From Escherichia coli (lineage in GTDB: Bacteria > Pseudomonadota > Gammaproteobacteria > Enterobacterales > Enterobacteriaceae), in NCBI RefSeq assembly GCF_013315695.1, contig NZ_CP054353.1: a stretch of DNA of 64,000 bases, one strand, 5' to 3'. Shown here piece by piece: positions 2,038-34,013 of the stretch. Both the position numbers and the translations under genes were made by a program. The notes beneath the pieces are model-generated. The model was not told the origin of the DNA and made no database searches. It saw only the letters and a program-made list of their open reading frames with translations. Within the stretch, counting starts at the first letter, position 1. Every line of letters begins with the position of its first letter.

Positions 2038-2114
2038 GCGCCCTTAGCTCAGTTGGATAGAGCAACGACCTTCTAAGTCGTGGGCCGCAGGTTCGAATCC
2101 TGCAGGGCGCGCCA
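2038..2114 (+). tRNA. argU: tRNA-Arg (anticodon UCU)
   Basis: 77-nt cloverleaf GCGCCCTTAGCTCAGTTGGATAGAGCAACGACCTTCTAAGTCGTGGGCCGCAGGTTCGAATCCTGCAGGGCGCGCCA; anticodon loop CT-TCT-AA. Confidence 0.9.
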
Positions 2115-2129: not shown

Positions 2130-3293
2130 TTACGCCTTCTTTATATCCTCCATAATTCCACAGTGGGACATATTTGGGACATTATCACCAAAAATGTCGT
2201 CTATTTTCCTTGCATGCTCTGTCAAATGATTAGGCGCAAGGTGAGCATACCTACGAACCATTTCTATGGACTCCCATCCGCCCATTTCCTGAAGCACAGA
2301 TAATGGGACGCCTGACTGGATCAGCCAGCTTGCCCAGGTGTGTCTGAGGTCATGGAAACGGAAATCTTCAATTCCTGCACGACGACAAGCTGATAGCCAT
2401 GATGTCTTGCTGTCGATGCGCATCTTCCTGACCGCAGGCGTTGATGTTCCATCTGCTCGCTTAGTCGCCTTGGTATGTACAAACACCCATTTGTGATGCT
2501 TGCCTATTTGATCACGCAACACTTTACAGGCGGTATCGTTCAGCGCCACACCAATGGCGCGGTTTGATTTGCTCTCTTCTGGATTCACCCAGGCAACTCG
2601 TCGCTGCATGTCGATTTGTTGCCATTCCAGATTTATGATGTTCGACTTTCTCAGACCAGTTGCCAGCGCAAACTTGACGACAGATTTCAGTGGTTCGGGG
2701 CACTCATCAATAAGGCGTTTTGCTTCCTCCTTTTCCAGCCATCTGACTCGCTTGTTTCTGACCGCTGGTATCTTGATGACAGGCGCTTTTTCCAGCCACT
2801 TCCAGTCGCGTTCTGCAGCACGGAGAATGGCCTTTATCATGGCAAGATGCTTTGCCTTTGTCTGAGTTGATACTGGCTTTGGTTCATAAACAGGCGGTTC
2901 TTTACCTTTCCTGATGGCGGCCTGAACTTTCTGTTTCCATATTTCTTTCGTCTTTCTGTTATGCATTCTGCTTACAGCAGAGTAAATCTTTGCCTCCGAG
3001 ATATCTTTAAGCCTTATACCCTCAAAATGTTCAAGCCAGAACTCAATCCGGCTTTTATCTGAATCGAGAGATTTTTTATCAGCTTTTTCCTCAAGCCATC
3101 TTAGGCAGGCCTCTTCAAAAGTGACATCAGGTAAATCCCCTAGCTTTTCTACTCGCCAGAGTTCTGCTTTTCGCTTGTCGTGCAACTCCTGAGCTTGCCG
3201 CTTGTCCTTTGTGCCAAGAGATTCCTTAATTCGTTTCCCGCCCGGGAGCGAATACGAGGCATACCATATTTCATTTCTGCGGAAGAGTGACAT
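2130..3293 (-). CDS. intD: Phage tyrosine integrase
   Basis: 387-aa product with C-terminal tyrosine-recombinase core (..[17 protein letters not shown]..); directly adjacent to argU. Confidence 0.85.
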
Positions 3294-3520
3294 TTTCTTT
3301 CCTCTGTTATGCCATCACCCGCGCTCACCTGGACAGTATGCAGCGGAGACTGAAGCGCCGCAATGCAAGCTTGCCGTGTTGTGAGGTAAGGAGATTTTGG
3401 CTTGGTTGGATCTTTACGTGTTGCCTGTAGGCGGCCTGTTCGTATCCAGTTGGTGGCGGTTGGTCTGGATATCTTAAGAAACTGACAGGCCTCATCGAGT
3501 GTGAGGCTGTATGGCTCCAT
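3149..3520 (-). CDS. Excisionase-like HTH protein (AlpA/Xis type); 3' end overlaps int
   Basis: Start at [31 protein letters not shown] (HTH); ATGA overlap with the upstream gene stop at 3520; the long C-terminal extension is uncertain. Confidence 0.5.
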
Positions 3521-3825
3521 TATTTCACCTCTTGCTGTGTCATTGTTGAAAAATGGATACCAGCTCGTTGCTGCCAGACGATCCAACCGAGAGTCATATC
3601 CCATGCCATGTATTCGTTATCGCCGTTTTTTACTCTCCGACGATCTACTAAGTCACCGAAACGCTTTTCCATGAATAATTCATAGGCTTCGCGTTCATCT
3701 GGCTCTACTTCCAGAGATACGAGTGCGATTTCATAAGCACGGCGCTCAATATCGTCTCGAACCTCTAGGCTGCTGATTCGTTCTTTGATTTCTTTAATCA
3801 GTTCTTTATTGGTAAATGTGGTCAT
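3520..3825 (-). CDS. Hypothetical phage early protein (101 aa)
   Basis: ORF translationally coupled to neighbours on both sides; no recognisable motif. Confidence 0.45.
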   Translation of the reverse strand: MTTFTNKELIKEIKERISSLEVRDDIERRAYEIALVSLEVEPDEREAYELFMEKRFGDLVDRRRVKNGDNEYMAWDMTLGWIVWQQRAGIHFSTMTQQEVK

Positions 3826-4187
3826 TATGCTCCAGCCTCCGGTGCTTTTGGCATTACTGCCCAGTGAGTGATATTGACGTTTTCAAGGTCCCCGACCTGA
3901 AATGTCCACTGCCATTCTCCGGTTTCTTTTTGTCCCCAGGTGTACCAGAGAGAACGCCAGCCAATCAGCCAGCCTTCTCCATTAGCATCAAATAACAGAA
4001 CACTTTCATTTGCTGGTGGCAGTTCAGCTGACACTGGTATTATTTTGTTTTCCAGTGCCGCACATTTAGCTTCAAGCGCGTCGAATTTACGTAACAGGTA
4101 CTCAGCATTTGTTTCATTCACTTTCAGATCTCGCGGTACACATTTCCCGCGAAGAAACCCTTCCATTTCGAAAACATTCATGCGCAT
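3825..4187 (-). CDS. DUF551-type phage protein (120 aa)
   Basis: C-terminal W-rich signature (GWLIGW...ITHWAVMPKAPE) typical of DUF551. Confidence 0.5.
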   Translation of the reverse strand: MRMNVFEMEGFLRGKCVPRDLKVNETNAEYLLRKFDALEAKCAALENKIIPVSAELPPANESVLLFDANGEGWLIGWRSLWYTWGQKETGEWQWTFQVGDLENVNITHWAVMPKAPEAGA

Positions 4188-4714
4188 TTGCGTAACTCCG
4201 ATAAATCGTTAAAACGTTCCATAAACATCCCGTAGGCATGACCCGGTGCCAGTGGAATCACGTTGAACATCTCTGTTGCCGGGATGCCTTCCAGTACAGG
4301 CCAGAAAGAGCCATCATCAAGCCCGAGATCGCGGCGTTCGGTTGCCAGCATGATGAGATCGGCATATTTCACGGGTGTACTCATAACTGGGGGTAACCCG
4401 TATTTCTCACGGATTACGGCGTCTATTTTTTCTTCCATCCGTTTATAGTCAGGAAGAAGGCGTTTCAGTGGTGCGGGAATGTCCTGGCAATACGCTTCTG
4501 TTGCATCATGCATTAACGCTTCAAAAGCAAATTCCTGCGGCACCAGCTGGCTGCAAAGAACCGCATGTTGGGCGACGCTGTAGAAGTGCGAAAGATGACC
4601 GGCAAAGCGACAGATATTTGAAAGGGAAACCGCGATATCGTTAATATCGATGTCGTCTTTATTTATCTTGTCATAATAAAAATGCTTCCCGGAAAAAGTT
4701 TTAATAAATGACAT
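4178..4714 (-). CDS. HD-domain phosphohydrolase (YfdR-like 5'-deoxynucleotidase)
   Basis: H...HD...D motif (..HAVLCSQ..ALMHDATEAY..); start at Met with a GGAG RBS inside ORF 4178-4741. Confidence 0.6.
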   Translation of the reverse strand: MSFIKTFSGKHFYYDKINKDDIDINDIAVSLSNICRFAGHLSHFYSVAQHAVLCSQLVPQEFAFEALMHDATEAYCQDIPAPLKRLLPDYKRMEEKIDAVIREKYGLPPVMSTPVKYADLIMLATERRDLGLDDGSFWPVLEGIPATEMFNVIPLAPGHAYGMFMERFNDLSELRKCA

Positions 4715-4842
4715 TTTGTTCTCCACGTATATGCACTGCACCGCGCTGAATTCTGGTAAAAGGAAGCCCTCACCATCCGGTGATTATTGAGTTAATTACG
4801 TTTCCATAAATGCCCCCGCAGGGGCATTTGCAGTAATGAAAT

Positions 4843-5041
4843 CAGGCGGTGAAAGTACCAATAAAGGTTTCTACTTTGCTGTCTTTGAATTTCTCAACAA
4901 GCAGATCACGAAATTCGTTAGCCATTTCTTCCTGCACCGCTTCCAGCTGAATAATGCGCAGAACCAGTACAGGACGATCGCCAGTGATAATGCTGAGGCG
5001 TAATTTAAACGGACGTTCTTTCAGACCTTCAAACGGAACGC
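4843..5041 (-). pseudogene. 3' fragment of a phage gene whose 5' end is removed at the IS1 junction
   Basis: Open frame (..[53 protein letters not shown]) runs into the IS1 left end with no start codon. Confidence 0.45.
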
Positions 5042-5096
5042 GGTGATGCTGCCAACTTACTGATTTAGTGTATGATGGTGTTTTTGAGGTGCTCCA

Positions 5097-5372
5097 GTGG
5101 CTTCTGTTTCTATCAGCTGTCCCTCCTGTTCAGCTACTGACGGGGTGGTGCGTAACGGCAAAAGCACCGCCGGACATCAGCGCTATCTCTGCTCTCACTG
5201 CCGTAAAACATGGCAACTGCAGTTCACTTACACCGCTTCTCAACCCGGTACGCACCAGAAAATCATTGATATGGCCATGAATGGCGTTGGATGCCGGGCA
5301 ACAGCCCGCATTATGGGCGTTGGCCTCAACACGATTTTACGTCACTTAAAAAACTCAGGCCGCAGTCGGTAA
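5097..5372 (+). CDS. insA: IS1 InsA
   Basis: 91-aa product [30 protein letters not shown]... Confidence 0.9.
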
Positions 5373-5794
5373 CCTCGCGCATACAGCCGGGCAGTGACGT
5401 CATCGTCTGCGCGGAAATGGACGAACAGTGGGGCTATGTCGGGGCTAAATCGCGCCAGCGCTGGCTGTTTTACGCGTATGACAGGCTCCGGAAGACGGTT
5501 GTTGCGCACGTATTCGGTGAACGCACTATGGCGACGCTGGGGCGTCTTATGAGCCTGCTGTCACCCTTTGACGTGGTGATATGGATGACGGATGGCTGGC
5601 CGCTGTATGAATCCCGCCTGAAGGGAAAGCTGCACGTAATCAGCAAGCGATATACGCAGCGAATTGAGCGGCATAACCTGAATCTGAGGCAGCACCTGGC
5701 ACGGCTGGGACGGAAGTCGCTGTCGTTCTCAAAATCGGTGGAGCTGCATGACAAAGTCATCGGGCATTATCTGAACATAAAACACTATCAATAA
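5291..5794 (+). CDS. insB: IS1 InsB frame (expressed as InsAB' by -1 frameshift)
   Basis: 167-aa frame overlapping insA; IS1 transposase signature. Confidence 0.85.
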
Positions 5795-5956
5795 GTTGGA
5801 GTCATTACCTTCTAATTGATATGCAATTGTTTACTAAAAGTTATTAAAAATGGGGCGTGGAAACGCCCCCAAAATAAAGGGTAATATATAACAGAAGGTT
5901 TATATAGTAAGAAGCAAGGTAGTGCTTCTAAAGGAAGTGGCTTGAGGGCTCCACTT

Positions 5957-5997
5957 ATATGTTGCGGAGGCAAAGCCTCCCGCAACATATCTTTTTC
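5957..5997. terminator. Hairpin with T-run between IS1 and the nmpC stop
   Basis: atatgttgcggagg-caaa-gcctcccgcaacatat followed by ctttttc. Confidence 0.35.
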
Positions 5998-6007
5998 GTA
6001 AGTCAGA

Positions 6008-7090
6008 TTAGAACTGATAAACCAGACCTACAGCGACGATGTCGTCGGTATCAATACCAGCTGTTTTGGTAAACTTACTATCGTCAATTAAGTTGATTTT
6101 GTAATCAACAAAAGTGGACATGTTTTTATTAAAGTAGTAAGTAGCACCGACATCGACATACTTGACTAAGTCTCGGTCACCATGAACACCAAGGTCTTTA
6201 CCTTTTGACTGAAGGTAAGCAACAGATGGACGCAGACCGAAGTCAAACTGATATTGTGCTACTGCTTCAAAGTTTTGTGCTTTGTTTGCAATATGGTTAT
6301 TACCAAAAACGGTCATATTCTGAGTTTCAGAATATGTGGTAGCCAGATAGATATTGTTCGCATCATATTTCAGGCCTGCAGCCCATACTTCCGCATTTTT
6401 GCCGGAGGCATTGAATTTGCTCTTACCATAGGCGACCTGACCGTCAGTGCGATCTGATTTAGCATAGGTTGCACCCACGCCGAATCCTTCATACTCATAA
6501 GTAGTGGAGAAACCGAAACCATCACCATTGGCTTCAGTTACGTCAGTGCGGTCATTTTTACCCTGATACTGAGCAGCAAAGTTCAGGCCATCGACCAGAC
6601 CAAAGAAGTCGTTGTTACGATAAGTTGCAACACCAGTAGTGCGACCAGTCATGAACACATCTGTTTGGGTCCAGGTATCACCACCGAATTCTGGCAGGAC
6701 GTCAGTCCACGCACCGATGTCGTATGCTACACCGTAGTTACGGCCGTAATCGATTGAGCCGTAATCACCAAATTTCAGGCCTGCAAATGCAAGACGGGTT
6801 TTGTCTTTGGAAGAACCTTGAGATTCAGCACGGTTGCCTTTGAATTCATATTCCCACTGACCGAAACCAGTCAGTTGATCGTTGATTTGGGTTTCACCTT
6901 TGAAGCCAAGACGGGCATAAGTAGTATCACCATCATCTGCATCATTAGAGGAGAAGTAGTGCTTGGCATTAACTTTCCCGTATAGATCCAGCTTGTTACT
7001 GTCTTTATTATAAATTTCAGCTGCCTGAGCAGACATCGCCATCAGTACTGATGCAGCTACAGCAGAAATTGCCACTGTTAATTTTTTCAT
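6008..7090 (-). CDS. nmpC: Prophage-encoded general porin (NmpC/OmpD family)
   Basis: Signal peptide [23 protein letters not shown], porin beta-barrel, C-terminal ..VAVGLVYQF; uninterrupted. Confidence 0.8.
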
Positions 7091-7516
7091 TGTACGCCCT
7101 TTTTTTGAACTATTATTAAAAAATGATGTCACTGCGCGATAAATATTCATCTAATCAATGCGATTATTTCAAGATGTAAGTTTTAGTTTCTCATTTAATT
7201 TGTGAAGTAGATCTCTATTTTTATCTAAACCTTTTCTATCTAATCCTATTCATGGCTCTTGTTTGAACGAAAATAAATCTATTAGCTAATTTATATTAAT
7301 GGCACTTATTTATAAGCGATCTATAATTCTTTAGCTTAATTTAAACAAGCTAAAAATAACATCGGAAATTATTCATTGGTTATTTGTTGAAGTTTTCTTA
7401 TGTATTTGTGGTGGTGTTTTGAACACTCGGTGGCATTCTCACAAATATCATTTAGTAGTTTACGTACGTAAAAAATTGGTTATGCTGTTAAGAGTGGTTA
7501 CTTCGTCACACAGCTT

Positions 7517-7550
7517 AAACCCGCCGTCGAGCGGGTTTTTCCATTTTTTG
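7517..7550 (+). terminator. Rho-independent terminator upstream of the lysis genes (candidate tR-prime of the late operon)
   Basis: aaacccgc-cgtcga-gcgggttt then ttccatttttt; position matches lambdoid pR-prime/tR-prime architecture. Confidence 0.45.
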
Positions 7551-7678
7551 AGTCTCGATATTAGCTGATAACCCAATACCTGAGTTATTCACTGACTCCG
7601 AATCTGTTACGTTTCTGCCTTTATTGCGATACGTAGTATCCCCTTAATTTACACCCGCTTTGTCTGCGAGGTGGGGTT

Positions 7679-10949: not shown

Positions 10950-10990
10950 CGATCCGACAGGTTACGGGGCGGCGACCTCGCGGGTTTTCG
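10950..10990 (+). other. cos site (cosN, 12-nt cohesive end gggcggcgacct at 10967-10978)
   Basis: ..gatccgacaggttacg|gggcggcgacct|cgcgggttttcgctatttatg.. matches the lambda cohesive-end junction. Confidence 0.85.
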
Positions 10991-11155: not shown

Positions 11156-11675
11156 ATGGAAGTCAACAAAAAGCAGCTGGCTGACATTTTCGGTGCGAGT
11201 ATCCGTACCATTCAGAACTGGCAGGAACAGGGAATGCCCGTTCTGCGAGGCGGTGGCAAGGGTAATGAGGTGCTTTATGACTCTGCCGCCGTCATAAAAT
11301 GGTATGCCGAAAGGGATGCTGAAATTGAGAACGAAAAGCTGCGCCGGGAGGTTGAAGAACTGCGGCAGGCCAGCGAGGCAGATCTCCAGCCAGGGACTAT
11401 TGAGTACGAACGCCACCGACTTACGCGTGCGCAGGCCGACGCACAGGAACTGAAGAATGCCAGAGACTCCGCTGAAGTGGTGGAAACCGCATTCTGTACT
11501 TTCGTGTTGTCGCGGATCGCAGGTGAAATTGCCAGTATTCTCGACGGGATCCCCCTGTCGGTGCAGCGGCGTTTTCCGGAACTGGAAAACCGACATGTTG
11601 ATTTCCTGAAACGGGATATCATCAAAGCCATGAACAAAGCAGCCGCGCTGGATGAACTGATACCGGGGTTGCTGA

Positions 11676-11701
<26 letters not shown>
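11156..11701 (+). CDS. nu1: Terminase small subunit
   Basis: 181-aa product MEVNKKQLADIFGASIRTIQNWQEQGMPVL..., lambda Nu1. Confidence 0.9.
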
Positions 11702-15382
<3,681 letters not shown>

Positions 15383-15402
<20 letters not shown>

Positions 15403-16702
15403 TCTCCCGCATATTACCAGTATGGCCTTTAATGAGCCGCTGATGCTTGAACCCGCCTATGCGCGGGTTTTCTTTTGTGCGCTTGCAGGCCAGCTTGGGA
15501 TCAGCCGCCTGACGGATGCGGTATCCGGCGACAGCCTGACTGCCGGAGAGGCACCCGCGGCGCTGGCGTTATCCGTTGATGATGACGGACCACGGCAGGC
15601 CCGCAGTTATCAGGTCATGAACGGCATCGCCGTGCTGCCGGTGTCCGGCACGCTGGTCAGCCGGACGCGGGCGCTGCAGCCGTATTCGGGGATGACCGGT
15701 TACAACGGCATTATCGCCCGTCTGCAACAGGCTGCCAGCGACCCGATGGTGGACGGCATTCTGCTCGATATGGATACGCCAGGCGGGATGGTGGCAGGGG
15801 CATTTGACTGCGCTGACATCATCGCCCGTGTGCGTGACATAAAGCCGGTATGGGCGCTGGCCAATGACATGAACTGCAGCGCAGGTCAGCTGCTTGCCAG
15901 TGCCGCCTCCCGGCGTCTGGTCACGCAGACCGCCCGGACAGGCTCCATCGGCGTCATGATGGCTCACAGTAATTACGGTGCTGCGCTGGAGAAACAGGGC
16001 GTGGAAATCACGCTGATTTACAGCGGCAGCCATAAGGTGGATGGCAACCCCTACAGCCATCTTCCGGATGACGTCCGGGAGACACTGCAGTCCCGGATGG
16101 ATGCAACCCGCCGGATGTTTGCGCAGAAGGTGTCGGCATATACCGGCCTGTCCGTGCAGGCTGTGCTGGATACCGAGGCTGCAGTGTACAGCGGTCAGGA
16201 GGCCATTGATGCCGGACTGGCTGATGAACTTGTTAACAGCACCGATGCGATCACCGTCATGCGTGATGCACTGGATGCACGTAAATCCCGTCTCTCAGGA
16301 GGGCGAATGACCAAAGAGACTCAATCAACAACTGTTTCAGCCACCGCTTCGCAGGCTGACGTTACTGACGTGGTGCAAGCGACGGAGGGCGAAAACGCCA
16401 GCGCGGCGCAGCCGGACGTGAACACGCAGATCACCGCAGCGGTTGCGGCAGAAAACAGCCGCATTATGGGGATCCTCAACTGTGAGGAGGCTCACGGACG
16501 CGAAGAACAGGCGCGCGTGCTGGCAGAAACCCCCGGAATGACCGTGGAAACGGCCCGCCGCATTCTGGCCGCAGCACCACAGAGTGCACAGGCGCGCAGT
16601 GACACTGCGCTGGATCGTCTGATGCAGGGTGCACCGGCACCACTGGCTGCAGGTAACCCGGCATCTGATGCCGTTAACGATTTGCTGAACACACCAGTGT
16701 AA
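15383..16702 (+). CDS. C: Capsid maturation protease C with nested scaffold Nu3 in the same frame
   Basis: GTG start at 15383 (..VTAELRNLPHITSMAFNEPLM..), S49/ClpP-like protease, lambda gpC. Confidence 0.8.
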
Positions 16703-16711
16703 GGGATGTTT

Positions 16712-17044
16712 ATGACGAGCAAAGAAACCTTTACCCATTACCAGCCGCTGGGCAACAGTGACCCGGCTCATACCGCAACCGCGCCCGGCGGATTGAGTGC
16801 GAAAGCGCCTGCAATGACTCCGCTGATGCTTGACACCGCCACCCGTAAGCTGGTTGCGTGGGATGGCACCACCGACGGTGCTGCCGTTGGCATTCTGGCT
16901 GTTGCAGCTGACCAGACCAGCACCACGCTGACGTTCTACAAGTCCGGCACGTTCCGTTATGAGGATGTGCTCTGGCCGGAGGCTGCCAGCGACGAGACGA
17001 AAAAACGGACCGCGTTTGCCGGAACGGCAATCAGCATCGTTTAA
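16712..17044 (+). CDS. D: Head decoration protein D
   Basis: [27 protein letters not shown]..., lambda gpD. Confidence 0.9.
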
Positions 17045-17063
17045 CTTTACCCTTCATCACTAA

Positions 17064-17087
17064 AGGCCGCCTGTGCGGCTTTTTTTA
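17064..17087 (+). terminator. Hairpin with T7 run between D and E
   Basis: ggccgc-ctgt-gcggc followed by ttttttt. Confidence 0.4.
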
Positions 17088-17099
17088 CGGGATTTTTTT

Positions 17100-18125
17100 A
17101 TGTCGATGTACACAACCGCCCAGCTGCTGGCGGCAAATGAGCAGAAATTTAAGTTTGATCCGCTGTTTCTGCGTCTCTTTTTCCGTGAGAGCTATCCCTT
17201 CACCACGGAGAAAGTCTATCTCTCACAAATTCCGGGACTGGTAAACATGGCGCTGTACGTTTCGCCGATTGTTTCCGGTGAGGTTATCCGCTCCCGTGGC
17301 GGCTCCACCTCTGAATTTACACCGGGATATGTCAAGCCGAAGCATGAGGTGAATCCGCAGATGACCCTGCGTCGCCTGCCGGATGAAGATCCGCAGAATC
17401 TGGCGGACCCGGCTTACCGCCGCCGTCGCATCATCATGCAGAACATGCGTGACGAAGAGCTGGCCATTGCTCAGGTCGAAGAGATGCAGGCCGTTTCTGC
17501 CGTGCTTAAGGGCAAATACACCATGACCGGTGAAGCCTTCGATCCGGTTGAGGTGGATATGGGCCGCAGTGCGGCGAATAACATCACGCAGTCCGGCGGC
17601 ACGGAGTGGAGCAAGCGTGACAAGTCCACGTATGACCCGACCGACGATATCGAAGCCTACGCGCTGAACGCCAGCGGTGTGGTGAATATCATCGTGTTTG
17701 ATCCGAAAGGCTGGGCGCTGTTCCGTTCCTTCAAAGCCGTCAGGGAGAAGCTGGATACCCGTCGTGGCTCTCATTCCGAGCTGGAGACAGCGGTAAAAGA
17801 CCTGGGTAAAGCGGTGTCCTATAAGGGTATGTATGGCGATGTTGCCATCGTCGTGTATTCCGGACAGTACGTGGAAAACGGCGTCAAAAAGAACTTCCTG
17901 CCGGACAACACGATGGTGCTGGGGAACACTCAGGCACGCGGTCTGCGCACCTATGGTTGTATTCAGGATGCGGACGCACAGCGCGAAGGCATTAACGCCT
18001 CTGCCCGTTACCCGAAAAACTGGGTGACCACCGGCGATCCGGCACGTGAGTTCACCATGATTCAGTCAGCACCGCTGATGCTGCTGGCTGACCCTGATGA
18101 GTTCGTGTCCGTACAACTGGCGTAA
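17100..18125 (+). CDS. E: Major capsid protein E
   Basis: MSMYTTAQLLAANEQKFKFDPLFLRLFF..., lambda gpE. Confidence 0.9.
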   Translation: MSMYTTAQLLAANEQKFKFDPLFLRLFFRESYPFTTEKVYLSQIPGLVNMALYVSPIVSGEVIRSRGGSTSEFTPGYVKPKHEVNPQMTLRRLPDEDPQNLADPAYRRRRIIMQNMRDEELAIAQVEEMQAVSAVLKGKYTMTGEAFDPVEVDMGRSAANNITQSGGTEWSKRDKSTYDPTDDIEAYALNASGVVNIIVFDPKGWALFRSFKAVREKLDTRRGSHSELETAVKDLGKAVSYKGMYGDVAIVVYSGQYVENGVKKNFLPDNTMVLGNTQARGLRTYGCIQDADAQREGINASARYPKNWVTTGDPAREFTMIQSAPLMLLADPDEFVSVQLA

Positions 18126-18166
18126 TCATGGCCCTTCGGGGCCATTGTCTCTCTGTGGAGAAGTCC

Positions 18167-18562
18167 ATGACGAAAGATGAACTGATTGCCCGTCTCCGCT
18201 CGCTGGGTGAACAACTGAACCGTGATGTCAGCCTGACGGGGACGAAAGAAGAACTGGCGCTCCGTGTGGCAGAGCTGGAAGAAGAGCTTGATGACACGGG
18301 CGACACTGCCGGTCAGGATACCCCTCTCAGCCCGGAAAATGTGCTGACCGGACATGAAAATGAGGTTGTATCAGCGCAGCCGGATACCGTGACTGATACG
18401 GCTGATCTGGTCACGGTTGTGGCACTGGTGACGCTGCATACTGATGCACTTCACGCCACGCGGGATGAGGCTGTGGCATTTGTGCTGCCGGGAACGGCGT
18501 TCCGTGTCTCTGCCGGTGTGGCAGCTGAAATGACAGAGCGCGGCCTGGCCAGAATGCAATAA
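18167..18562 (+). CDS. FI: DNA-packaging protein FI
   Basis: MTKDELIARLRSLGEQLNRDVSLTGTKEELALRVAELEEEL..., lambda gpFI. Confidence 0.85.
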   Translation: MTKDELIARLRSLGEQLNRDVSLTGTKEELALRVAELEEELDDTGDTAGQDTPLSPENVLTGHENEVVSAQPDTVTDTADLVTVVALVTLHTDALHATRDEAVAFVLPGTAFRVSAGVAAEMTERGLARMQ

Positions 18563-18573
18563 CGGGAGGCGCT

Positions 18574-18927
18574 GTGGCTGATTTCGATAACCTGTTCGAT
18601 GCTGCCATTGCCTGCGCCGATGAAACGATACGCGGGTACATGGGAACGTCAGCCACCATGACATCCGGTGAGCAGTCCGGTGCTGTGATACGTGGTGTTT
18701 TTGATGACCCTGAAAATATCAGCTATGCCGGACAGGGCGTGCGCGTTGAAGGCTCCAGCCCGTCCCTGTTTGTCCGGACTGATGATGTGCGGCAACTGCG
18801 GCGTGGAGACACGCTGACCATCGGTGAGGAAAACTTCTGGATAGATCGTGTTTCGCCGGATGATGGCGGAAGCTGTCATCTCTGGCTTGGGCGGGGCGTA
18901 CCGCCTGCCGTTAACCGTCGCCGCTGA
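18574..18927 (+). CDS. FII: Head-tail connector FII
   Basis: MADFDNLFDAAIACADETIRGYMGT..., lambda gpFII. Confidence 0.85.
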   Translation: MADFDNLFDAAIACADETIRGYMGTSATMTSGEQSGAVIRGVFDDPENISYAGQGVRVEGSSPSLFVRTDDVRQLRRGDTLTIGEENFWIDRVSPDDGGSCHLWLGRGVPPAVNRRR

Positions 18928-18938
18928 AAGGGGGATGT

Positions 18939-19517
18939 ATGGCCATAAAAGGTCTTGAGCAGGCCGTTGAAAACCTCAGCCGTATCAGCAAAACGGCGGT
19001 TCCCGGTGCCGCCGCAATGGCCATTAACCGCGTTGCGTCATCCGCGATATCGCAGTCGGCGTCACAGGTTGCCCGTGAGACAAAGGTACGCCGGAAACTG
19101 GTAAAGGAAAGGGCCAGGCTGAAAAGGGCCACGGTCAAAAATCCGCAGGCCAGAATCAAAGTTAACCGGGGGGATTTGCCCGTAATCAAGCTGGGTAATG
19201 CGCGGGTTGTCCTGTCCCGCCGCAGGCGTCGTAAAAAGGGGCAGCGTTCATCCCTGAAAGGTGGCGGCAGCGTGCTTGTGGTGGGTAACCGTCGTATTCC
19301 CGGCGCGTTTATTCAGCAACTGAAAAATGGCCGGTGGCATGTTATGCAGCGTGTGGCCGGGAAAAACCGTTACCCCATTGATGTGGTGAAAATCCCGATG
19401 GCGGTGCCGCTGACCACGGCGTTTAAACAGAATATTGAACGGATACGGCGTGAACGTCTTCCGAAAGAGCTGGGCTATGCGCTGCAGCATCAACTGAGAA
19501 TGGTAATAAAGCGATGA
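18939..19517 (+). CDS. Z: Tail terminator/completion protein Z
   Basis: 192 aa, lambda gpZ. Confidence 0.85.
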   Translation: MAIKGLEQAVENLSRISKTAVPGAAAMAINRVASSAISQSASQVARETKVRRKLVKERARLKRATVKNPQARIKVNRGDLPVIKLGNARVVLSRRRRRKKGQRSSLKGGGSVLVVGNRRIPGAFIQQLKNGRWHVMQRVAGKNRYPIDVVKIPMAVPLTTAFKQNIERIRRERLPKELGYALQHQLRMVIKR

Positions 19518-19909
19518 AACATACTGAACTCCGTGCAGCCGTACTGGATGCACTGGAGAAGCATGACACCGGGGCGACGCTTTTTGATGGTCGCCCCGCT
19601 GTTTTTGATGAGGAAGATTTTCCGGCAATTGCCGTTTATCTCACCGGCGCTGAATACACGGGCGAAGAGCTGGACAGCGATACCTGGCAGGCGGAGCTGC
19701 ATATTGAAGTTTTCCTGCCTGCTCAGGTGCCGGATTCAGAGCTGGATTCGTGGATGGAGTCCCGGATTTATCCGGTGATGAGCGATATCCCGGCACTGTC
19801 AGATTTGATCACCAGTATGGTGGCCAGTGGCTATGACTACCGGCGCGACGATGATGCGGGCCTGTGGAGTTCAGCCGATCTGACTTATGTCATTACCTAT
19901 GAAATGTGA
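19514..19909 (+). CDS. U: Tail tube terminator U
   Basis: 131 aa, lambda gpU. Confidence 0.85.
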
Positions 19910-19916
19910 GGACGCT

Positions 19917-20657
19917 ATGCCTGTACCAAATCCTGTAATGCCGGTGAAAGGTGCCGGGACCACCCTGTGGGTTTATAAGGGGAGCGGTGACCCTTATGCG
20001 AACCCGCTTTCAGACGTTGACTGGTCGCGTCTGGCAAAAGTTAAAGACCTGACGCCCGGCGAACTGACCGCTGAGTCCTATGACGACAGTTATCTCGATG
20101 ATGAGGATGCGGACTGGACTGCGACCGGGCAGGGGCAGAAATCAGCCGGAGATACCAGCTTCACGCTGGCGTGGATGCCCGGAGAGCAGGGGCAGCAGGC
20201 GCTGCTGGCGTGGTTTAATGAAGGTGATACCCGTGCCTATAAAATCCGCTTCCTGAACGGCACGGTCGATGTGTTCCGTGGCTGGGTCAGCAGCATCGGT
20301 AAGGCGGTGACGGCAAAGGAAGTGATCACCCGTACGGTGAAGGTCACCAATGTGGGTCGTCCGTCAATGGCAGAAGAACACAGTACGGTGACGGCGGCAA
20401 CCGGTATGACCGTGACGCCAGCCAGCGCTTCCGTAGTGAAAGGGAAGAGCACCACGCTGACCGTGGCCTTCCAGCCGGAAGGCGCAACCGACAAGAGCTT
20501 CCGTGCGGTGTCAGCGGATAAAACAAAAGCTACCGTGTCGGTCAGTGGTATGACCATCACCGTGAATGGCGTTGCTGCAGGTAAGGTCAACATTCCGGTC
20601 GTATCCGGTAATGGTGAGTTTGCTGCGGTTGCAGAAATTACCGTCACCGCCAGTTAA
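19917..20657 (+). CDS. V: Major tail tube protein V
   Basis: [33 protein letters not shown]... with C-terminal Ig-like domain; start at the internal Met of ORF 19887-20657. Confidence 0.9.
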
Positions 20658-20672
20658 TCCGGAGAGTCAGCG

Positions 20673-21095
20673 ATGTTCCTGAAAACCGAATCATTTGAAC
20701 ATAACGGTGTGACCGTCACGCTTTCTGAACTGTCAGCCCTGCAGCGCATTGAGCATCTCGCCCTGATGAAACGGCAGGCAGAACAGGCGGAGTCAGACAG
20801 CAACCGGAAGTTTACTGTGGAAGACGCCATCAGAACCGGCGCGTTTCTGGTGGCGATGTCCCTGTGGCATAACCATCCGCAGAAGACGCAGATGCCGTCC
20901 ATGAATGAAGCCGTTAAACAGATTGAGCAGGAAGTGCTTACCACCTGGCCCACGGAGGCAATTTCTCATGCTGAAAACGTGGTGTACCGGCTGTCTGGTA
21001 TGTATGAGTTTGTGGTGAATAATGCCCCTGAACAGACAGAGGACGCCGGGCCCGCAGAGCCTGTTTCTGCGGGAAAGTGTTCGACGGTGAGCTGA
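20673..21095 (+). CDS. G: Tail assembly chaperone G
   Basis: 140 aa, lambda gpG; slippery heptamer gggaaag at 21071-21077 near its 3' end. Confidence 0.85.
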   Translation: MFLKTESFEHNGVTVTLSELSALQRIEHLALMKRQAEQAESDSNRKFTVEDAIRTGAFLVAMSLWHNHPQKTQMPSMNEAVKQIEQEVLTTWPTEAISHAENVVYRLSGMYEFVVNNAPEQTEDAGPAEPVSAGKCSTVS

Positions 21096-21511
21096 GTTTT
21101 GCCCTGAAACTGGCGCGTGAGATGGGGCGACCCGACTGGCGTGCCATGCTTGCCGGGATGTCATCCACGGAGTATGCCGACTGGCACCGCTTTTACAGTA
21201 CCCATTATTTTCATGATGTTCTGCTGGATATGCACTTTTCCGGGCTGACGTACACCGTGCTCAGCCTGTTTTTCAGCGATCCGGATATGCATCCGCTGGA
21301 TTTCAGTCTGCTGAACCGGCGCGAGGCTGACGAAGAGCCTGAAGATGATGTGCTGATGCAGAAAGCGGCAGGGCTTGCCGGAGGTGTCCGCTTTGGCCCG
21401 GACGGGAATGAAGTTATCCCCGCTTCCCCGGATGTGGCGGACATGACGGAGGATGACGTAATGCTGATGACAGTATCAGAAGGGATCGCAGGAGGAGTCC
21501 GGTATGGCTGA
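21077..21511 (+). CDS. T: T frame of the G-T tail assembly chaperone (expressed by -1 programmed frameshift from G)
   Basis: Overlapping -1 frame downstream of GGGAAAG; lambda gpGT architecture. Confidence 0.8.
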   Translation: MFDGELSFALKLAREMGRPDWRAMLAGMSSTEYADWHRFYSTHYFHDVLLDMHFSGLTYTVLSLFFSDPDMHPLDFSLLNRREADEEPEDDVLMQKAAGLAGGVRFGPDGNEVIPASPDVADMTEDDVMLMTVSEGIAGGVRYG

Positions 21512-24065
21512 ACCGGTAGGCGATCTGGTCGTTGATTTGAGTCTGGATGCGGCCAGATTTGACGAGCAGATGGCCAGAGTCAGGCGTCATTTTTCCGGTA
21601 CGGAAAGTGATGCGAAAAAAACAGCGGCAGTCGTTGAACAGTCGCTGAGCCGACAGGCGCTGGCTGCACAGAAAGCGGGGATTTCCGTCGGGCAGTATAA
21701 AGCCGCCATGCGTATGCTGCCTGCACAGTTCACCGACGTGGCCACGCAGCTTGCCGGCGGGCAAAGTCCGTGGCTGATCCTGCTGCAACAGGGGGGGCAG
21801 GTGAAGGACTCCTTCGGCGGGATGATCCCCATGTTCAGGGGGCTTGCCGGTGCGATCACCCTGCCGATGGTGGGGGCCACCTCGCTGGCGGTGGCGACCG
21901 GTGCGCTGGCGTATGCCTGGTATCAGGGCAACTCAACCCTGTCCGATTTCAACAAAACGCTGGTCCTTTCCGGCAATCAGGCGGGACTGACGGCAGATCG
22001 TATGCTGGTCCTGTCCAGAGCCGGGCAGGCGGCAGGGCTGACGTTTAACCAGACCAGCGAGTCACTCAGCGCACTGGTTAAGGCGGGGGTAAGCGGTGAG
22101 GCTCAGATTGCGTCCATCAGCCAGAGTGTGGCGCGTTTCTCCTCTGCATCCGGCGTGGAGGTGGACAAGGTCGCTGAAGCCTTCGGGAAGCTGACCACAG
22201 ACCCGACGTCGGGGCTGACGGCGATGGCACGCCAGTTCCATAACGTGACGGCGGAGCAGATTGCGTATGTTGCTCAGTTGCAGCGTTCCGGCGATGAAGC
22301 CGGGGCATTGCAGGCGGCGAACGAGGCCGCAACGAAAGGGTTTGATGACCAGACCCGCCGCCTGAAAGAGAACATGGGCACGCTGGAGACCTGGGCAGAC
22401 AGGACAGCGCGGGCATTCAAATCCATGTGGGATGCGGTGCTGGATATTGGTCGTCCTGATACCGCGCAGGAGATGCTGATTAAGGCAGAGGCTGCGTTTA
22501 AGAAAGCAGACGACATCTGGAATCTGCGCAAGGATGATTATTTTGTTAACGATGAAGCGCGGGCGCGTTACTGGGATGATCGTGAAAAGGCCCGTCTTGC
22601 GCTTGAAGCCGCCCGAAAGAAGGCTGAGCAGCAGACTCAACAGGACAAAAATGCGCAGCAGCAGAGCGATACCGAAGCGTCACGGCTGAAATATACCGAA
22701 GAGGCGCAGAAGGCTTACGAACGGCTGCAGACGCCGCTGGAGAAATATACCGCCCGTCAGGAAGAACTGAACAAGGCACTGAAAGACGGGAAAATCCTGC
22801 AGGCGGATTACAACACGCTGATGGCGGCGGCGAAAAAGGATTATGAAGCGACGCTGAAAAAGCCGAAACAGTCCGGCGTGAAGGTGTCTGCGGGCGATCG
22901 TCAGGAAGACAGTGCTCATGCTGCCCTGCTGACGCTTCAGGCAGAACTCCGGACGCTGGAGAAGCATGCCGGAGCAAATGAGAAAATCAGCCAGCAGCGC
23001 CGGGATTTGTGGAAGGCGGAGAGTCAGTTCGCGGTACTGGAGGAGGCGGCGCAACGTCGCCAGCTGTCTGCACAGGAGAAATCCCTGCTGGCGCATAAAG
23101 ATGAGACGCTGGAGTACAAACGCCAGCTGGCTGCACTTGGCGACAAGGTTACGTATCAGGAGCGCCTGAACGCGCTGGCGCAGCAGGCGGATAAATTCGC
23201 ACAGCAGCAACGGGCAAAACGGGCCGCCATTGATGCGAAAAGCCGGGGGCTGACTGACCGGCAGGCAGAACGGGAAGCCACGGAACAGCGCCTGAAGGAA
23301 CAGTATGGCGATAATCCGCTGGCGCTGAATAACGTCATGTCAGAGCAGAAAAAGACCTGGGCGGCTGAAGACCAGCTTCGCGGGAACTGGATGGCAGGCC
23401 TGAAGTCCGGCTGGAGTGAGTGGGAAGAGAGCGCCACGGACAGTATGTCGCAGGTAAAAAGTGCAGCCACGCAGACCTTTGATGGTATTGCACAGAATAT
23501 GGCGGCGATGCTGACCGGCAGTGAGCAGAACTGGCGCAGCTTCACCCGTTCCGTGCTGTCCATGATGACAGAAATTCTGCTTAAGCAGGCAATGGTGGGG
23601 ATTGTCGGGAGTATCGGCAGCGCCATTGGCGGGGCTGTTGGTGGCGGCGCATCCGCGTCAGGCGGTACAGCCATTCAGGCCGCTGCGGCGAAATTCCATT
23701 TTGCAACCGGAGGATTTACGGGAACCGGCGGCAAATATGAGCCAGCGGGGATTGTTCACCGTGGTGAGTTTGTCTTCACGAAGGAGGCAACCAGCCGGAT
23801 TGGCGTGGGGAATCTTTACCGGCTGATGCGCGGCTATGCCACCGGCGGTTATGTCGGTACACCGGGCAGCATGGCAGACAGCCGGTCGCAGGCGTCCGGG
23901 ACGTTTGAGCAGAATAACCATGTGGTGATTAACAACGACGGCACGAACGGGCAGATAGGTCCGGCTGCTCTGAAGGCGGTGTATGACATGGCCCGCAAGG
24001 GTGCCCGTGATGAAATTCAGACACAGATGCGTGATGGTGGCCTGTTCTCCGGAGGTGGACGATGA
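21504..24065 (+). CDS. H: Tail tape measure protein H
   Basis: 853 aa, coiled-coil rich, lambda gpH. Confidence 0.9.
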   Translation: MAEPVGDLVVDLSLDAARFDEQMARVRRHFSGTESDAKKTAAVVEQSLSRQALAAQKAGISVGQYKAAMRMLPAQFTDVATQLAGGQSPWLILLQQGGQVKDSFGGMIPMFRGLAGAITLPMVGATSLAVATGALAYAWYQGNSTLSDFNKTLVLSGNQAGLTADRMLVLSRAGQAAGLTFNQTSESLSALVKAGVSGEAQIASISQSVARFSSASGVEVDKVAEAFGKLTTDPTSGLTAMARQFHNVTAEQIAYVAQLQRSGDEAGALQAANEAATKGFDDQTRRLKENMGTLETWADRTARAFKSMWDAVLDIGRPDTAQEMLIKAEAAFKKADDIWNLRKDDYFVNDEARARYWDDREKARLALEAARKKAEQQTQQDKNAQQQSDTEASRLKYTEEAQKAYERLQTPLEKYTARQEELNKALKDGKILQADYNTLMAAAKKDYEATLKKPKQSGVKVSAGDRQEDSAHAALLTLQAELRTLEKHAGANEKISQQRRDLWKAESQFAVLEEAAQRRQLSAQEKSLLAHKDETLEYKRQLAALGDKVTYQERLNALAQQADKFAQQQRAKRAAIDAKSRGLTDRQAEREATEQRLKEQYGDNPLALNNVMSEQKKTWAAEDQLRGNWMAGLKSGWSEWEESATDSMSQVKSAATQTFDGIAQNMAAMLTGSEQNWRSFTRSVLSMMTEILLKQAMVGIVGSIGSAIGGAVGGGASASGGTAIQAAAAKFHFATGGFTGTGGKYEPAGIVHRGEFVFTKEATSRIGVGNLYRLMRGYATGGYVGTPGSMADSRSQASGTFEQNNHVVINNDGTNGQIGPAALKAVYDMARKGARDEIQTQMRDGGLFSGGGR

Positions 24066-24391
24066 AGACCTTCCGCTGGAAAGTGAAACCAGGTATGGAT
24101 GTGGCTTCGGTCCCTTCTGTAAGAAAGGTGCGCTTTGGTGATGGCTATTCTCAGCGAGCGCCTGCCGGGCTGAATGCCAACCTGAAAACGTACAGCGTGA
24201 CGCTTTCTGTCCCCCGTGAGGAGGCCACGGTACTGGAGTCGTTTCTGGAAGAGCACGGGGGCTGGAAATCCTTTCTGTGGACGCCGCCTTATGAGTGGCG
24301 GCAGATAAAGGTGACCTGCGCAAAATGGTCGTCGCGGGTCAGTATGCTGCGTGTTGAGTTCAGCGCAGAGTTTGAACAGGTGGTGAACTGA
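24062..24391 (+). CDS. M: Tail tip protein M
   Basis: 109 aa, lambda gpM. Confidence 0.85.
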   Translation: MKTFRWKVKPGMDVASVPSVRKVRFGDGYSQRAPAGLNANLKTYSVTLSVPREEATVLESFLEEHGGWKSFLWTPPYEWRQIKVTCAKWSSRVSMLRVEFSAEFEQVVN

Positions 24392-25089: not shown

Positions 25090-25094
25090 ATCCC

Positions 25095-26407: not shown

Positions 26408-26467
26408 TGCAAAATGTTTTATGTGAAACCGCCTGCGGGCGGTTTTGTCATTTATGGAGCGTGAGGA

Positions 26468-29881: not shown

Positions 29882-29901
29882 AATTGTTATAACCCATATA
29901 A

Positions 29902-29927
29902 GGGCACCAGAAATGGTGCCTTTTTTA
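29902..29927 (+). terminator. Rho-independent terminator after J
   Basis: gggcacc-agaaat-ggtgcc followed by ttttttatt. Confidence 0.5.
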
Positions 29928-29950
29928 TTGCAGAAAAGCGAGAGGTAATT

Positions 29951-30550: not shown

Positions 30551-30576
30551 TTAGCCAGGTAACACAGTGTTATGAC

Positions 30577-30605
30577 AGCCCGCCGGTTCAGGTGGGCTTT
30601 TTTGT
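30577..30605 (+). terminator. Rho-independent terminator after lom
   Basis: agcccgcc-ggttca-ggtgggc followed by tttttt. Confidence 0.5.
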
Positions 30606-30614
30606 GGGGGGAAT

Positions 30615-33289: not shown

Positions 33290-33298
33290 GGAAGAAAA

Positions 33299-34003: not shown

Positions 34004-34013
34004 AGGAGGAGTA

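Follow-up and report, generated by a model that had tools for sequence, protein, structure and literature searches.

An IS1-linked 9.3-kb deletion in an argU lambdoid prophage of Escherichia coli that leaves the late genes with no Q gene in cis

Introduction

The prophage DLP12 of Escherichia coli K-12, integrated at argU, is the natural point of reference for the element analysed here. Its layout runs intD ... quuD-nmpC-essD-rrrD-rzpD ... nohD. In K-12, DLP12 has kept quuD, its nmpC is interrupted by an IS5, and few of its structural genes remain. Work on K-12, as cited in PMC7918800, reports that RpoE and Hha control its S-R-Rz operon besides Q, and that the lysis module has phenotypes in uninduced cells.

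Two other phages bear on the region between Q and the lysis genes. In the record of phage 933W, a putative pR', a qut site, and a first terminator are annotated, and the 933W Q is noted to resemble the Q of DLP12. The full-length pR' transcript reported for 933W, StxS, is processed at +173 to a 74-nt 3' fragment (PMC7547250), which makes it ~247 nt long. It would end near the second annotated 933W terminator, ~250 nt from the annotated promoter, and the first hairpin therefore appears to be read through. In phage PA-2, a porin gene (lc, of the NmpC type) lies between Q and the lysis genes and is transcribed against the late operon.

A relative over the whole element is PhiR49_1 (PV340568.1; 45,270 bp; host listed as ECOR13). 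A literature search found no paper describing it; it counts as a viable phage by its database label.

The last comparison is with the deletions that insertion sequences cause. Adjacent deletion was classically described for IS1 next to gal. In such a deletion, the IS is kept at its site, DNA is lost from the terminal base of the IS onward, one copy of the target duplication disappears, and the junction is AT-rich (PMC11708052). Loss of the duplication is known to mark adjacent deletions, or else recombination of one IS copy with another (PMC11708052).

Outline of the prophage

The window, by which is meant the whole stretch of 64,000 nucleotides that was analysed, carries a lambdoid prophage in the 3' end of argU, with 39-bp direct repeats on both sides of it (Table 1). 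From attL to attR the prophage measures 36.7 kb. The position of attR places a ybcY-like methyltransferase gene, the gene for a 493-aa hydrolase, and ompT inside the prophage. It still has its integrase gene and a xis-like ORF, the two att sites, a porin gene, a late-promoter cassette, the lysis genes, and cos. Of the repressor/cro switch, replication genes, and late activator that a functional temperate phage needs, none was found in the window; all of them belong to a 9.33-kb block that is missing.

Residues 29-144 of the excisionase-like ORF span the whole of PHROG 2907 (E = 1.3e-45). At this ORF, PGAP annotates only a 66-bp HTH pseudogene. A scan of positions 1-40000 at the Rfam gathering thresholds returned nothing beyond the tRNA; two hairpin matches in a permissive Rfam scan of 5700-7800 were sub-threshold and were set aside as chance.

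The likeness to DLP12 extends over the integration site, the integrase type, the module of quuD, porin, late leader and lysis genes, and the lambda-like cos/Nu1 region; PGAP gives the genes DLP12 names. Both prophages are defective and are without immunity and replication genes. Unlike DLP12, however, the window prophage has lost quuD while keeping its porin gene and a complete late region, and it carries yfdP-yfdT-type (CPS-53-like) genes in its early-left region.

Table 1. Features of the argU prophage, in window coordinates
Feature	Position	Strand	Basis
argU tRNA-Arg (anticodon tct), integration site	2038..2114	+	ARAGORN; Rfam tRNA match
attL, 39-bp att repeat	2078-2116		repeat search
Integrase intD, intact, 387 aa	2130..3293	-	ORF list; PGAP annotation of near-identical record
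Excisionase-like ORF	3149..3604	-	PHROG search
Surviving early-left genes yfdT, yfdS, yfdR (5'-deoxynucleotidase)	3520..4741	-	ORF list, PGAP, PHROG
yfdQ/DUF2303 3' remnant, 200 bp, cut by IS1	4842..5041	-	PHROG 18285/210 C-terminal match; AF3 comparison
IS1A, intact insA + insB'	5042..5809	+	PGAP (IS1A transposase, programmed frameshift)
Last 10 nt of quuD (T TCT AAT TGA), right deletion endpoint	5810..5819	+	
Pair of hairpins where quuD and the porin gene converge	5852..5990	.	terminator scan; sequence
Porin terminator hairpin	5869-5852	-	terminator scan
Hairpin, T-run after it on the plus strand	5957-5990		terminator scan
NmpC/Lc-type phage porin, intact, 360 aa, lysogenic-conversion gene	6008..7090	-	
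Late-promoter cassette	7459..7547	+	933W pR'/qut/terminator homology; terminator scan; fold
essD (holin), intact	7679-7894	+	
rrrD (endolysin), intact	7894-8391	+	
Rz spanin, intact	8388-8825	+	
cos cohesive-end sequence GGGCGGCGACCT	10967..10978	+	exact-match search
Lambda-like packaging, head, tail and tail-fibre genes	11156..34307	+	ORF checks against PGAP gene models
ybcY-like methyltransferase, inside prophage	34501-35169		
Hydrolase, 493 aa, inside prophage	35711-37192		
ompT, inside prophage	37379-38332		
attR, argU-derived 39-bp repeat	38763-38801	+	repeat search; PhiR49_1 colinearity up to window 38805

The IS1 and its junctions

The element that interrupts the early region is an IS1 of 768 bp. 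Its terminal inverted repeats are of the typical (imperfect) kind, and its ORFs lie at 5097-5372 and 5291-5794. Over the eleven other IS1 copies compared, identity is 98.4-100%; with the IS1A at the same site in E. coli MSB1_4I it is 100%.

The initial annotation had described this IS1 as lacking a target-site duplication, as abutting a 5'-truncated ORF, and as lying about 200 bp from nmpC. Each of these descriptions holds. The 9 bp on its left are ACGGAACGC and those on its right are TTCTAATTG; because these are unlike each other, there is no target-site duplication. The truncated ORF is the 3' end of yfdQ, and its last 9 bp, ACGGAACGC, are the remaining copy of the IS1 target duplication, as recognised by comparison with AF3. 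To the right, the new junction between IS1 and quuD sits in AT-rich DNA, and the porin stop codon follows at a distance of 198 bp.

Comparison with relatives that are not deleted at this point makes the structure legible. E. coli AF3 (NZ_OZ547117.1) holds this argU prophage too, and neither the position nor the orientation of its IS1A differs from that in the window. In AF3, the 9-bp duplication is intact, with ACGGAACGC on both sides of the IS1, and the early region follows in full to its right. Window 1-5809 corresponds to AF3 852-6660 with 2 SNPs, IS1 included, and window 5810 onward corresponds to AF3 16001 onward, with 6 differences in the next 7.3 kb. What the window does not have is AF3 6661-16000 (9,340 bp), a segment that begins at the last base of the IS1.

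PhiR49_1 gives the same breakpoints. The whole prophage is colinear with it at 97.6-99.97% identity (99.6% in the late leader), except for one block of 9,330 bp that begins exactly at the right end of the IS1. Window 2116-5041 matches PhiR49_1 1-2926, and window 5810-38805, starting with the quuD remnant, matches PhiR49_1 12257-45270. PhiR49_1 differs in having no IS1 and in having yfdQ, cI, cro, the O-like gene, and Q intact; its copy of the absent 9.3-kb block shows 99.9% identity. The initial annotation had proposed to reconstruct the event from intact argU relatives, and both AF3 and PhiR49_1 fit a single IS1-linked deletion. The alignments support the view that an IS1 resident in an argU lambdoid prophage would have deleted the adjoining 9.3 kb in one step.

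Shorter relatives suggest a different history, one in which immunity and replication genes were lost earlier in an IS-free manner, as has happened to numerous argU prophages, and the IS1 event took only ~2.5 kb (the 5' part of yfdQ, yfdP, small ORFs, a DUF968 remnant, and quuD). L002, L007, L008, and others, which are widespread, are indeed without repressor and replication genes, have no IS1 there, and keep quuD; against them, the IS1 flanks of the window are only 2.5 kb apart. The right flank, however, is just 88.7-95.5% identical to relatives of this type, as against ~99.9% to AF3 and 98.8% to PhiR49_1. Further, AF3 shares the rare IS1 site to the nucleotide, yet holds the full 9.3 kb. Such stepwise erosion is therefore scarcely credible. 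An IS1-linked loss of 2.5 kb had been entertained from the comparisons with L002, L007, and L008, and was dropped when a search with the right flank gave the better matches in AF3 and PhiR49_1. In none of the relatives examined are the two flanks adjacent, an arrangement that the initial annotation had named as one that would count against a deletion; the intervening DNA is 9.3 kb in AF3 and PhiR49_1, and 2.5 kb in the shorter relatives.

An IS1 is, of course, the kind of repeat that can collapse in assembly and so create a false junction. This IS1 is multicopy, with at least 40 matching pieces in the closest genome. But both junctions are present in the window and again in the complete MSB1_4I record, and the junction is precise to the terminal base of the IS1. 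Between the two records there are 11 SNPs and one indel in 14 kb, and in addition an indel of 43 bp, so that they are independent sequences. Thus, the structure is no assembly artefact of a single record, and the chance that the junction is false is negligible. Among 5,426 complete genomes, the right junction between IS1 and yfdQ occurs as one contiguous match in AF3 only, and the junction between IS1 and the end of quuD in MSB1_4I only.

Two histories could have led to these junctions. In one, a second IS1 in the same orientation entered at the 3' end of quuD, and homologous recombination between the two copies removed the interval, leaving a single IS1 with mismatched flanks. The final sequence would be identical to that made by an adjacent deletion, and recombination between IS copies would account equally well for the missing duplication (PMC11708052). 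The region of the quuD stop codon is, moreover, a repeated IS1 junction site, with IS1 endpoints recurring within 50 bp of that codon in unrelated strains. Against this stands the need for two events rather than one. Nor does any of the 5,426 complete genomes have an IS1 at the exact right-hand position with quuD still attached. The IS1 itself has no hybrid pattern. Its single difference from the AF3 copy is a change private to AF3, and since all other examined IS1 copies have the base found in the window, there is no hint of a hybrid element. Recombination between two IS1 copies is accordingly held to be unlikely.

Contents of the lost block

In the relatives, the block encodes a CI-type repressor, cro, a CII-like gene, an O-like replication gene, RusA and other nin-type genes, and quuD, as assigned by PHROG searches. 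QuuD belongs to the Q family (PHROG 79, E = 1.7e-53), and matches the structure of phage 21 Q (6P18, E = 4e-8). By analogy with lambda, the early promoters should lie between the divergent repressor and cro genes of this block, and the replication origin was presumably lost along with the O-like initiator.

One IS1-mediated event had initially been credited with removing recombination, immunity, replication, nin, and Q functions. For the last four this stands, as all of them are in the block present in AF3 and PhiR49_1. It does not stand for recombination. The lost interval of this phage type holds no Red-like recombination genes; only RusA and uncharacterised yfd genes went with it.

The late region

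The porin protein (WP_000737271.1) is identical to the AF3 copy. Its setting is that of the PA-2 lc/NmpC porin, being phage-borne, placed in this phage type between Q and the lysis genes, and transcribed against the late operon, although the allele is a different one. Over the leader that adjoins it (window 7140-7700), identity to the PA-2 lc region (J02580) is 91.5%.

Within the leader, ~100 nt (window 7456-7550) can be aligned with the part of 933W that is annotated as putative pR', qut site, and first terminator. By this homology, the predicted late promoter has its -35 hexamer, TTTACG, at 7459-7464 and its -10 hexamer, TATGCT, at 7481-7486. A conserved TAAGAGTGGTTAC block follows the -10, and then a hairpin with a T-run at 7517-7547, found by the terminator scan; the hairpin that the initial annotation had placed in the late-operon leader, as a terminator, is thus present. 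The -35 hexamer, the TAAGAGTGGTTAC block, and the hairpin are shared with 933W. The hallmark of a Q-dependent unit, a promoter closely before a terminator with homology to a known pR'-qut, is therefore present at 7459-7547. The homology stops after this first hairpin, so the 74-nt StxS portion is absent from the window. The arrangement also differs from that of 933W in that a porin gene comes between Q and the promoter in this phage type, and in that no cognate Q remains in the window. The sole sigma-70-like site of the promoter consensus scan, at 7299-7327, was rejected as the late promoter, the pR' homologue of 933W being 7459-7486.

Downstream, 30 annotated ORFs were checked over 7679-34307, beginning with essD and finishing with the last of the tail-fibre ORFs. 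All 30 are open and full length. These data bear out the initial reading of lysis genes, cos, and structural genes without frameshift or stop. The sequence GGGCGGCGACCT at 10967 is identical to the lambda cohesive-end sequence. Beyond it come Nu1, A, W, B, C, D, E, FI, FII, Z, U, V, G, T, H, M, L, K, I, J, Lom, and stf, with three further ORFs. To the right of the IS1 a single gene is frameshifted, the minus-strand accessory gene ybcV (DUF1398) near 10267.

Search for a remaining Q or repressor

A Q-like antiterminator or a repressor elsewhere in the window would, as the initial annotation recognised, undo the claim of missing regulation. A tblastn panel was therefore assembled from lambda N, cI, cro, cII, O, P, and Q, the 933W Q, the AF3 QuuD, and AF3 early proteins. 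Against the window it returned nothing significant beyond an expected KilA-N paralogue and a chance match in fepA. That chance match was to QuuD (63516-63662; E = 0.026), and lies inside fepA. With the three Q proteins of the panel, tblastn found no Q in the window, where quuD amounts to 10 nt, and PHROG scans of the unnamed window ORFs yielded neither a Q nor a repressor. Within the window, the late transcription unit has no cognate Q in cis.

Among complete genomes, that of MSB1_4I is the closest. A chimeric query matches it at one place, its own porin-leader region; in AF3, the count goes from 1 place to 3. The single match means that, at megablast sensitivity, the MSB1_4I chromosome has no other quuD-like DNA.

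Proposed history and the state of the late genes

The explanation that best fits these observations, and in which we have considerable confidence, is an insertion of IS1A into yfdQ followed by an adjacent deletion that left the late genes without Q. A lambdoid phage of the PhiR49_1 type, from the DLP12 family, would first have integrated at argU. An IS1A would then have inserted into the non-essential early-left gene yfdQ, a state that AF3 preserves. Next, the right end of the resident IS1 would have attacked AT-rich DNA 10 nt short of the quuD end by intramolecular replicative transposition, the mechanism that we infer for the deletion. This would remove 9.33 kb, leave the IS1 in place, and cost one copy of the 9-bp duplication. 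Loss of the repressor together with the early genes up to Q, and with Q itself, would be a viable way to lose immunity, with no lysis triggered.

All features of adjacent deletion listed in the Introduction (PMC11708052) recur here, and nothing mechanistically different is visible. Only the target, the regulatory region of a prophage, is specific to this case.

For the late genes, the consequence would be as follows. Without a Q of the QuuD type, RNA polymerase that initiates at the late promoter is predicted to go no further than the 7517-7547 hairpin, and so the late operon should give at most basal read-through. It is reasonable to infer from this layout that the late genes would be silent unless Q is supplied in trans.

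"Silent" may nevertheless be too strong a word, given that the DLP12 lysis cassette of K-12 reportedly responds to RpoE and Hha as well (PMC7918800). Q-independent read-through, or stress promoters such as RpoE-dependent ones, might give low but functional expression of the lysis genes, and perhaps of more. The 7517-7547 hairpin does not have an exceptional fold (z = -0.9 against shuffles), and the homologous 933W hairpin is apparently read through (PMC7547250). On the other hand, the layout of promoter and hairpin is of the Q-dependent late type, the promoter consensus scan finds no further promoter-like site between the hairpin and essD, and strong expression of holin and endolysin would kill the cell. 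A late operon that is not silent is thus a possibility to be taken seriously, albeit the less probable state.

Significance

The event is ordinary, recent prophage decay of a textbook kind, and it involves no new mechanism. Its value is as a clean, one-step case in which a functional temperate phage becomes a cryptic prophage at nucleotide resolution. All three states can be seen in public sequences: a phage record that has no IS, a prophage into which IS1 has inserted, and one that has both the IS1 and the deletion. Intact late genes without their regulator can simply mean that a deletion is very recent; here, they would be intact for that reason, and not because of demonstrable selection. 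This should be a caution for prophage-prediction tools that score such elements as intact.

One could, of course, read the arrangement as a helper-triggered module. Under this reading, a superinfecting or co-resident lambdoid phage with a Q of the QuuD/933W type would switch on the lysis, terminase, and particle genes. The result might be premature lysis and protection that resembles abortive infection. Alternatively, it might be packaging from the chromosomal cos, with transduction of the ompT/cus/ent region, or rescue of the 36.7-kb element, which has 81% of the parental genome length. The recurrent IS1 endpoints near the quuD stop codon would then reflect selection for exactly such a configuration. 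We regard this as very unlikely.

Strains of the window's lineage should not release this phage on induction. They still carry the phage porin, ompT, lysis genes, and cos; on superinfection, a related phage could recombine with these or activate them.

Reconstruction of the deletion

The window, a piece of E. coli chromosome, carries a lambdoid prophage of the DLP12 family. Integrated at the 3' end of argU, it derives directly from a phage of the PhiR49_1 type by deletion. Its length, 36.7 kb, follows from the 39-bp direct repeats that bound it.

Features of the argU prophage, and of the block that it has lost
Feature	Window position	Remark
argU	2038-2114	tRNA-Arg(tct)
Direct repeats	2078-2116 and 38763-38801	39 bp, bounding the prophage; repeat search
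Gene order, left part		intD, xis-like ORF, yfdT, yfdS, yfdR, 200-bp yfdQ 3' remnant, IS1A
xis-like ORF	3149-3604 (minus)	
IS1	5042-5809	768 bp, typical inverted ends
Gene order, middle		198-bp spacer, NmpC/Lc-type porin (opposite strand), 588-bp leader, essD, rrrD, Rz
Porin gene	6008-7090 (minus)	intact
Late promoter cassette	7456-7550	-35 TTTACG, 7459-7464; -10 TATGCT, 7481-7486
Hairpin and T-run	7517-7547	terminator scan
Gene order, post-lysis		KilA-N gene, small ORF, ybcV (frameshifted) and ylcI (minus strand), cos
KilA-N gene and small ORF	9027-9778	165 and 85 aa
ybcV (DUF1398)	10058-10491 (minus)	frameshift near 10267
Cohesive-end sequence	10967	GGGCGGCGACCT; exact-match search
Gene order, right part		Nu1 through tail-fibre genes, ybcY-like methyltransferase, hydrolase, ompT
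Methyltransferase to ompT	34501-38801	inside the repeats
Lost, yfdQ side		5' 636 bp of yfdQ, yfdP, small ORFs
Lost, switch		CI-type S24 repressor (PHROG 4), cro-like gene, CII-like YmfL, YmfM
Lost, replication		O-like replication initiator (PHROG 391)
Lost, further genes		PerC-like activator, Dam methylase, small LexA-like repressor, RusA, KilA-N protein, DUF968/HNH protein
Lost, quuD		Q-family antiterminator (PHROG 79, E = 1.7e-53)

The initial annotation described an IS1 that lacks a target-site duplication, abuts a truncated reading frame, and lies about 200 bp from nmpC. This description is accurate. The flanks are ACGGAACGC and TTCTAATTG, hence no 9-bp duplication; the truncated frame is yfdQ (DUF2303), matching PHROGs 18285 and 210; and an intact porin gene follows the spacer. 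The IS1 is 100% identical to the copy at the same site in MSB1_4I (NZ_LR898874.1), the closest complete genome, and 98.4-99.9% identical to ten other copies.

IS-free argU prophages are common in E. coli. In three of these (L002, L007, L008), just 2.5 kb separates the IS1 flanks of the window, and neither repressor nor replication genes are left. On this basis the IS1-linked loss seemed small and secondary to an older deletion. That reading was rejected, as the right flank is only 88.7-95.5% identical there and strain AF3 (NZ_OZ547117.1) matches far closer. The three carry differing IS-free deletions (L007 6110-7207, L008 5385-5493, L002 6094-7204) that remove repressor and replication genes and retain quuD. 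One junction falls in a DUF968 remnant, to which yfdQ is directly joined in L008. IS-free loss of the same block with quuD kept is also seen in many other E. coli strains. The same early block has thus been eroded repeatedly and independently among the argU relatives.

Close relatives, including AF3, were found by searching with the right flank alone. AF3, a blood isolate, has the same prophage at argU, with the same integrase, porin and lysis proteins. Here, IS1A sits inside yfdQ with ACGGAACGC on both flanks, and the early region is complete. Window 1-5809 corresponds to AF3 852-6660 with two SNPs in 5.8 kb and no gaps, the IS1 matching in both insertion base and orientation; window 5810 onward corresponds to AF3 16001 onward, with six differences across the next 7.3 kb. 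The window therefore lacks AF3 6661-16000 (9,340 bp), a block that begins at the first base past IS1 and ends 10 nt short of the quuD end.

The comparison with related prophages that the initial annotation proposed gives the same answer from PhiR49_1 (PV340568.1), a 45,270-bp GenBank phage record with neither IS1 nor deletion. It is colinear with the entire prophage (window 2116-5041 is PhiR49_1 1-2926; window 5810-38805 is PhiR49_1 12257-45270) and, like AF3, holds the missing block, at 99.9% identity. Across 5,426 complete E. coli genomes, a single contiguous match to the right IS1-yfdQ junction exists in AF3 alone, and one to the junction of IS1 with the quuD end in MSB1_4I alone. Together, these comparisons and the junction distribution give the order of events. 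A PhiR49_1-type phage lysogenized at argU, IS1 then inserted in yfdQ, and a deletion ran rightward from the IS1 end.

The window and MSB1_4I are 99.5-99.9% identical over the 50 kb compared, but are not identical. The first 14 kb hold 11 SNPs and one indel, the portal gene (13684-13948) has a concentration of SNPs, and at a 43-bp indel between FII and Z (about 18930-18980) the window agrees with AF3, not MSB1_4I. The deletion is therefore present in two or more distinct sequences.

Mechanism

The proposal that one IS1-mediated event made the deletion fares well, although only its IS1-mediated part holds under either model. The preferred model, not proven, is an adjacent deletion made in one event by intramolecular replicative transposition. 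Four features fit it: the IS1 has stayed where it first inserted, its terminal base is where the deletion starts, the target duplication has lost one of its copies, and the endpoint lies in AT-rich DNA. A missing target duplication is commonly explained by adjacent deletion or by recombination between IS copies (PMC11708052). Two IS1 copies recombining with each other would yield the same product. However, no intermediate carrying both appears among the 5,426 complete genomes, and the sole IS1 difference from AF3 is a change private to AF3, giving no hybrid pattern. For these two reasons, the one-event model is preferred.

IS-mediated adjacent deletions and prophage inactivation by IS elements are both well known. 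We found no literature description of this particular deletion, which is a fresh instance of familiar IS-driven prophage inactivation. Compared with DLP12 of K-12, the late genes of this prophage are less decayed and its Q more so.

Two further IS1 right-end junctions flank that of the window, at distances of 23 bp (left) and 27 bp (right). Three independent junctions in the same orientation thus fall within 50 bp around the quuD stop (AF3-equivalent 15978, 16001 and 16028). The other two are carried by H7 (L012 7151) and by ET76, EC6 and ES1 (L011 7151), unrelated strains with other integration sites; the IS1 abuts yagM of CP4-6 in H7, and a truncated integrase beside ybhC in ET76. All three junction types have lost Q and the whole early region and kept the porin. 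The clustering could reflect a preference of IS1 for AT-rich targets, or a hot spot. It could also come from a viability filter, since any endpoint has to take out Q but leave the porin in place.

Gene content lost

Lost genes were named from record annotation and PHROG assignments. The quuD product is remotely homologous to Q of phage 21 (structure 6P18, E = 4e-8). Of the functions thought to be deleted, immunity, replication, nin and Q are all in the missing block; recombination differs, as the interval in this phage type has no Red-like genes, leaving RusA as the only clear recombination function lost. By analogy with lambda, the early promoters should also sit in this interval. Because the deletion takes the repressor, Q, and the early genes between them, immunity is lost and the lysis genes are not unleashed.

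No Q or repressor was found in the window, in line with what was first supposed. PHROG scans of all unnamed prophage ORFs found neither. A tblastn panel (lambda N, cI, cro, cII, O, P and Q; 933W Q; AF3 QuuD and thirteen other AF3 early proteins; cI and cro of the MS 21-1 lambda-like prophage) gave no significant match across the six frames of the window, save the expected KilA-N paralogue. A borderline QuuD match, inside fepA, was dismissed as chance.

For the rest of the genome, a chimeric query joining the right flank to reverse-complemented quuD was run against the chromosome at megablast sensitivity. In MSB1_4I it matches one place, its own porin-leader region; thus, at this sensitivity, no quuD-like DNA lies elsewhere on that chromosome. 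In AF3, matching places rise from one to three. By these counts, AF3 has a second quuD-like place outside its argU locus, and MSB1_4I has none.

Late control region

The terminator-like hairpin reported in the late leader was recovered. A consensus scan offered 7299-7327 as the late promoter; alignment with Stx phage 933W points instead to the cassette in the table, whose homologue in 933W (L014 3660-3760) is annotated as putative pR', qut and first terminator. The -35 is kept in 933W with equal spacing, the -10 there is TATCAT, and the TAAGAGTGGTTAC block and hairpin are conserved. PhiR49_1 is identical to the window across this cassette, and in several other database phage records the leader exceeds 99% identity. 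Phages of this type have their porin gene placed between Q and the late promoter; the promoter cassette itself was spared by the IS1 event.

Judged from sequence, the late genes are likely to be largely silent without a cognate Q. Three things hold this at likely. The hairpin fold is unremarkable against shuffles. The 933W pR' transcript appears to pass the first hairpin; its full length is about 247 nt (a reported +173 cleavage plus a 74-nt fragment; PMC7547250), so that it would end near a second annotated terminator, which has no counterpart in the window. Finally, the K-12 DLP12 lysis cassette is described (PMC7918800) as dependent on Q and also on RpoE and Hha. The window cassette matches the 5' part of the 933W transcript that yields the StxS sRNA. 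The homology stops past the first hairpin, and the 74-nt StxS portion is therefore absent.

Intact late genes and other features

The claim of cos followed by uninterrupted structural genes stands: from essD through the final tail-fibre ORF, each of the 30 ORFs checked is full length and uninterrupted, and GGGCGGCGACCT is the lambda cohesive-end sequence. So few differences from AF3 imply that the deletion is very recent, leaving no time for decay; that the late genes are intact does not show that their function is under selection. The head genes (14280-18342) hold a further cluster of differences from AF3, resembling patches of recombination between closely related prophages. ybcV, the only pseudogene found right of IS1, is intact in AF3, its frameshift being one of only six differences in 5810-13158.

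The xis-like ORF overlaps the int start by 145 bp. PGAP marks only a 66-bp HTH pseudogene fragment there; the ORF matches excisionase family PHROG 2907 across the full profile (E = 1.3e-45), and the xis gene may thus be intact. The ybcY-like methyltransferase, a 493-aa alpha/beta hydrolase (PHROG 20134) and ompT also lie within the PhiR49_1 record, making ompT phage-borne cargo in this prophage. Just past the lysis genes, where other relatives have bor, the 165-aa KilA-N protein belongs to PHROG 129 ("transcriptional regulator") and weakly resembles Rha and anti-repressors; a larger KilA-N gene, its paralogue (31% identity, E = 4e-8), went with the deletion.
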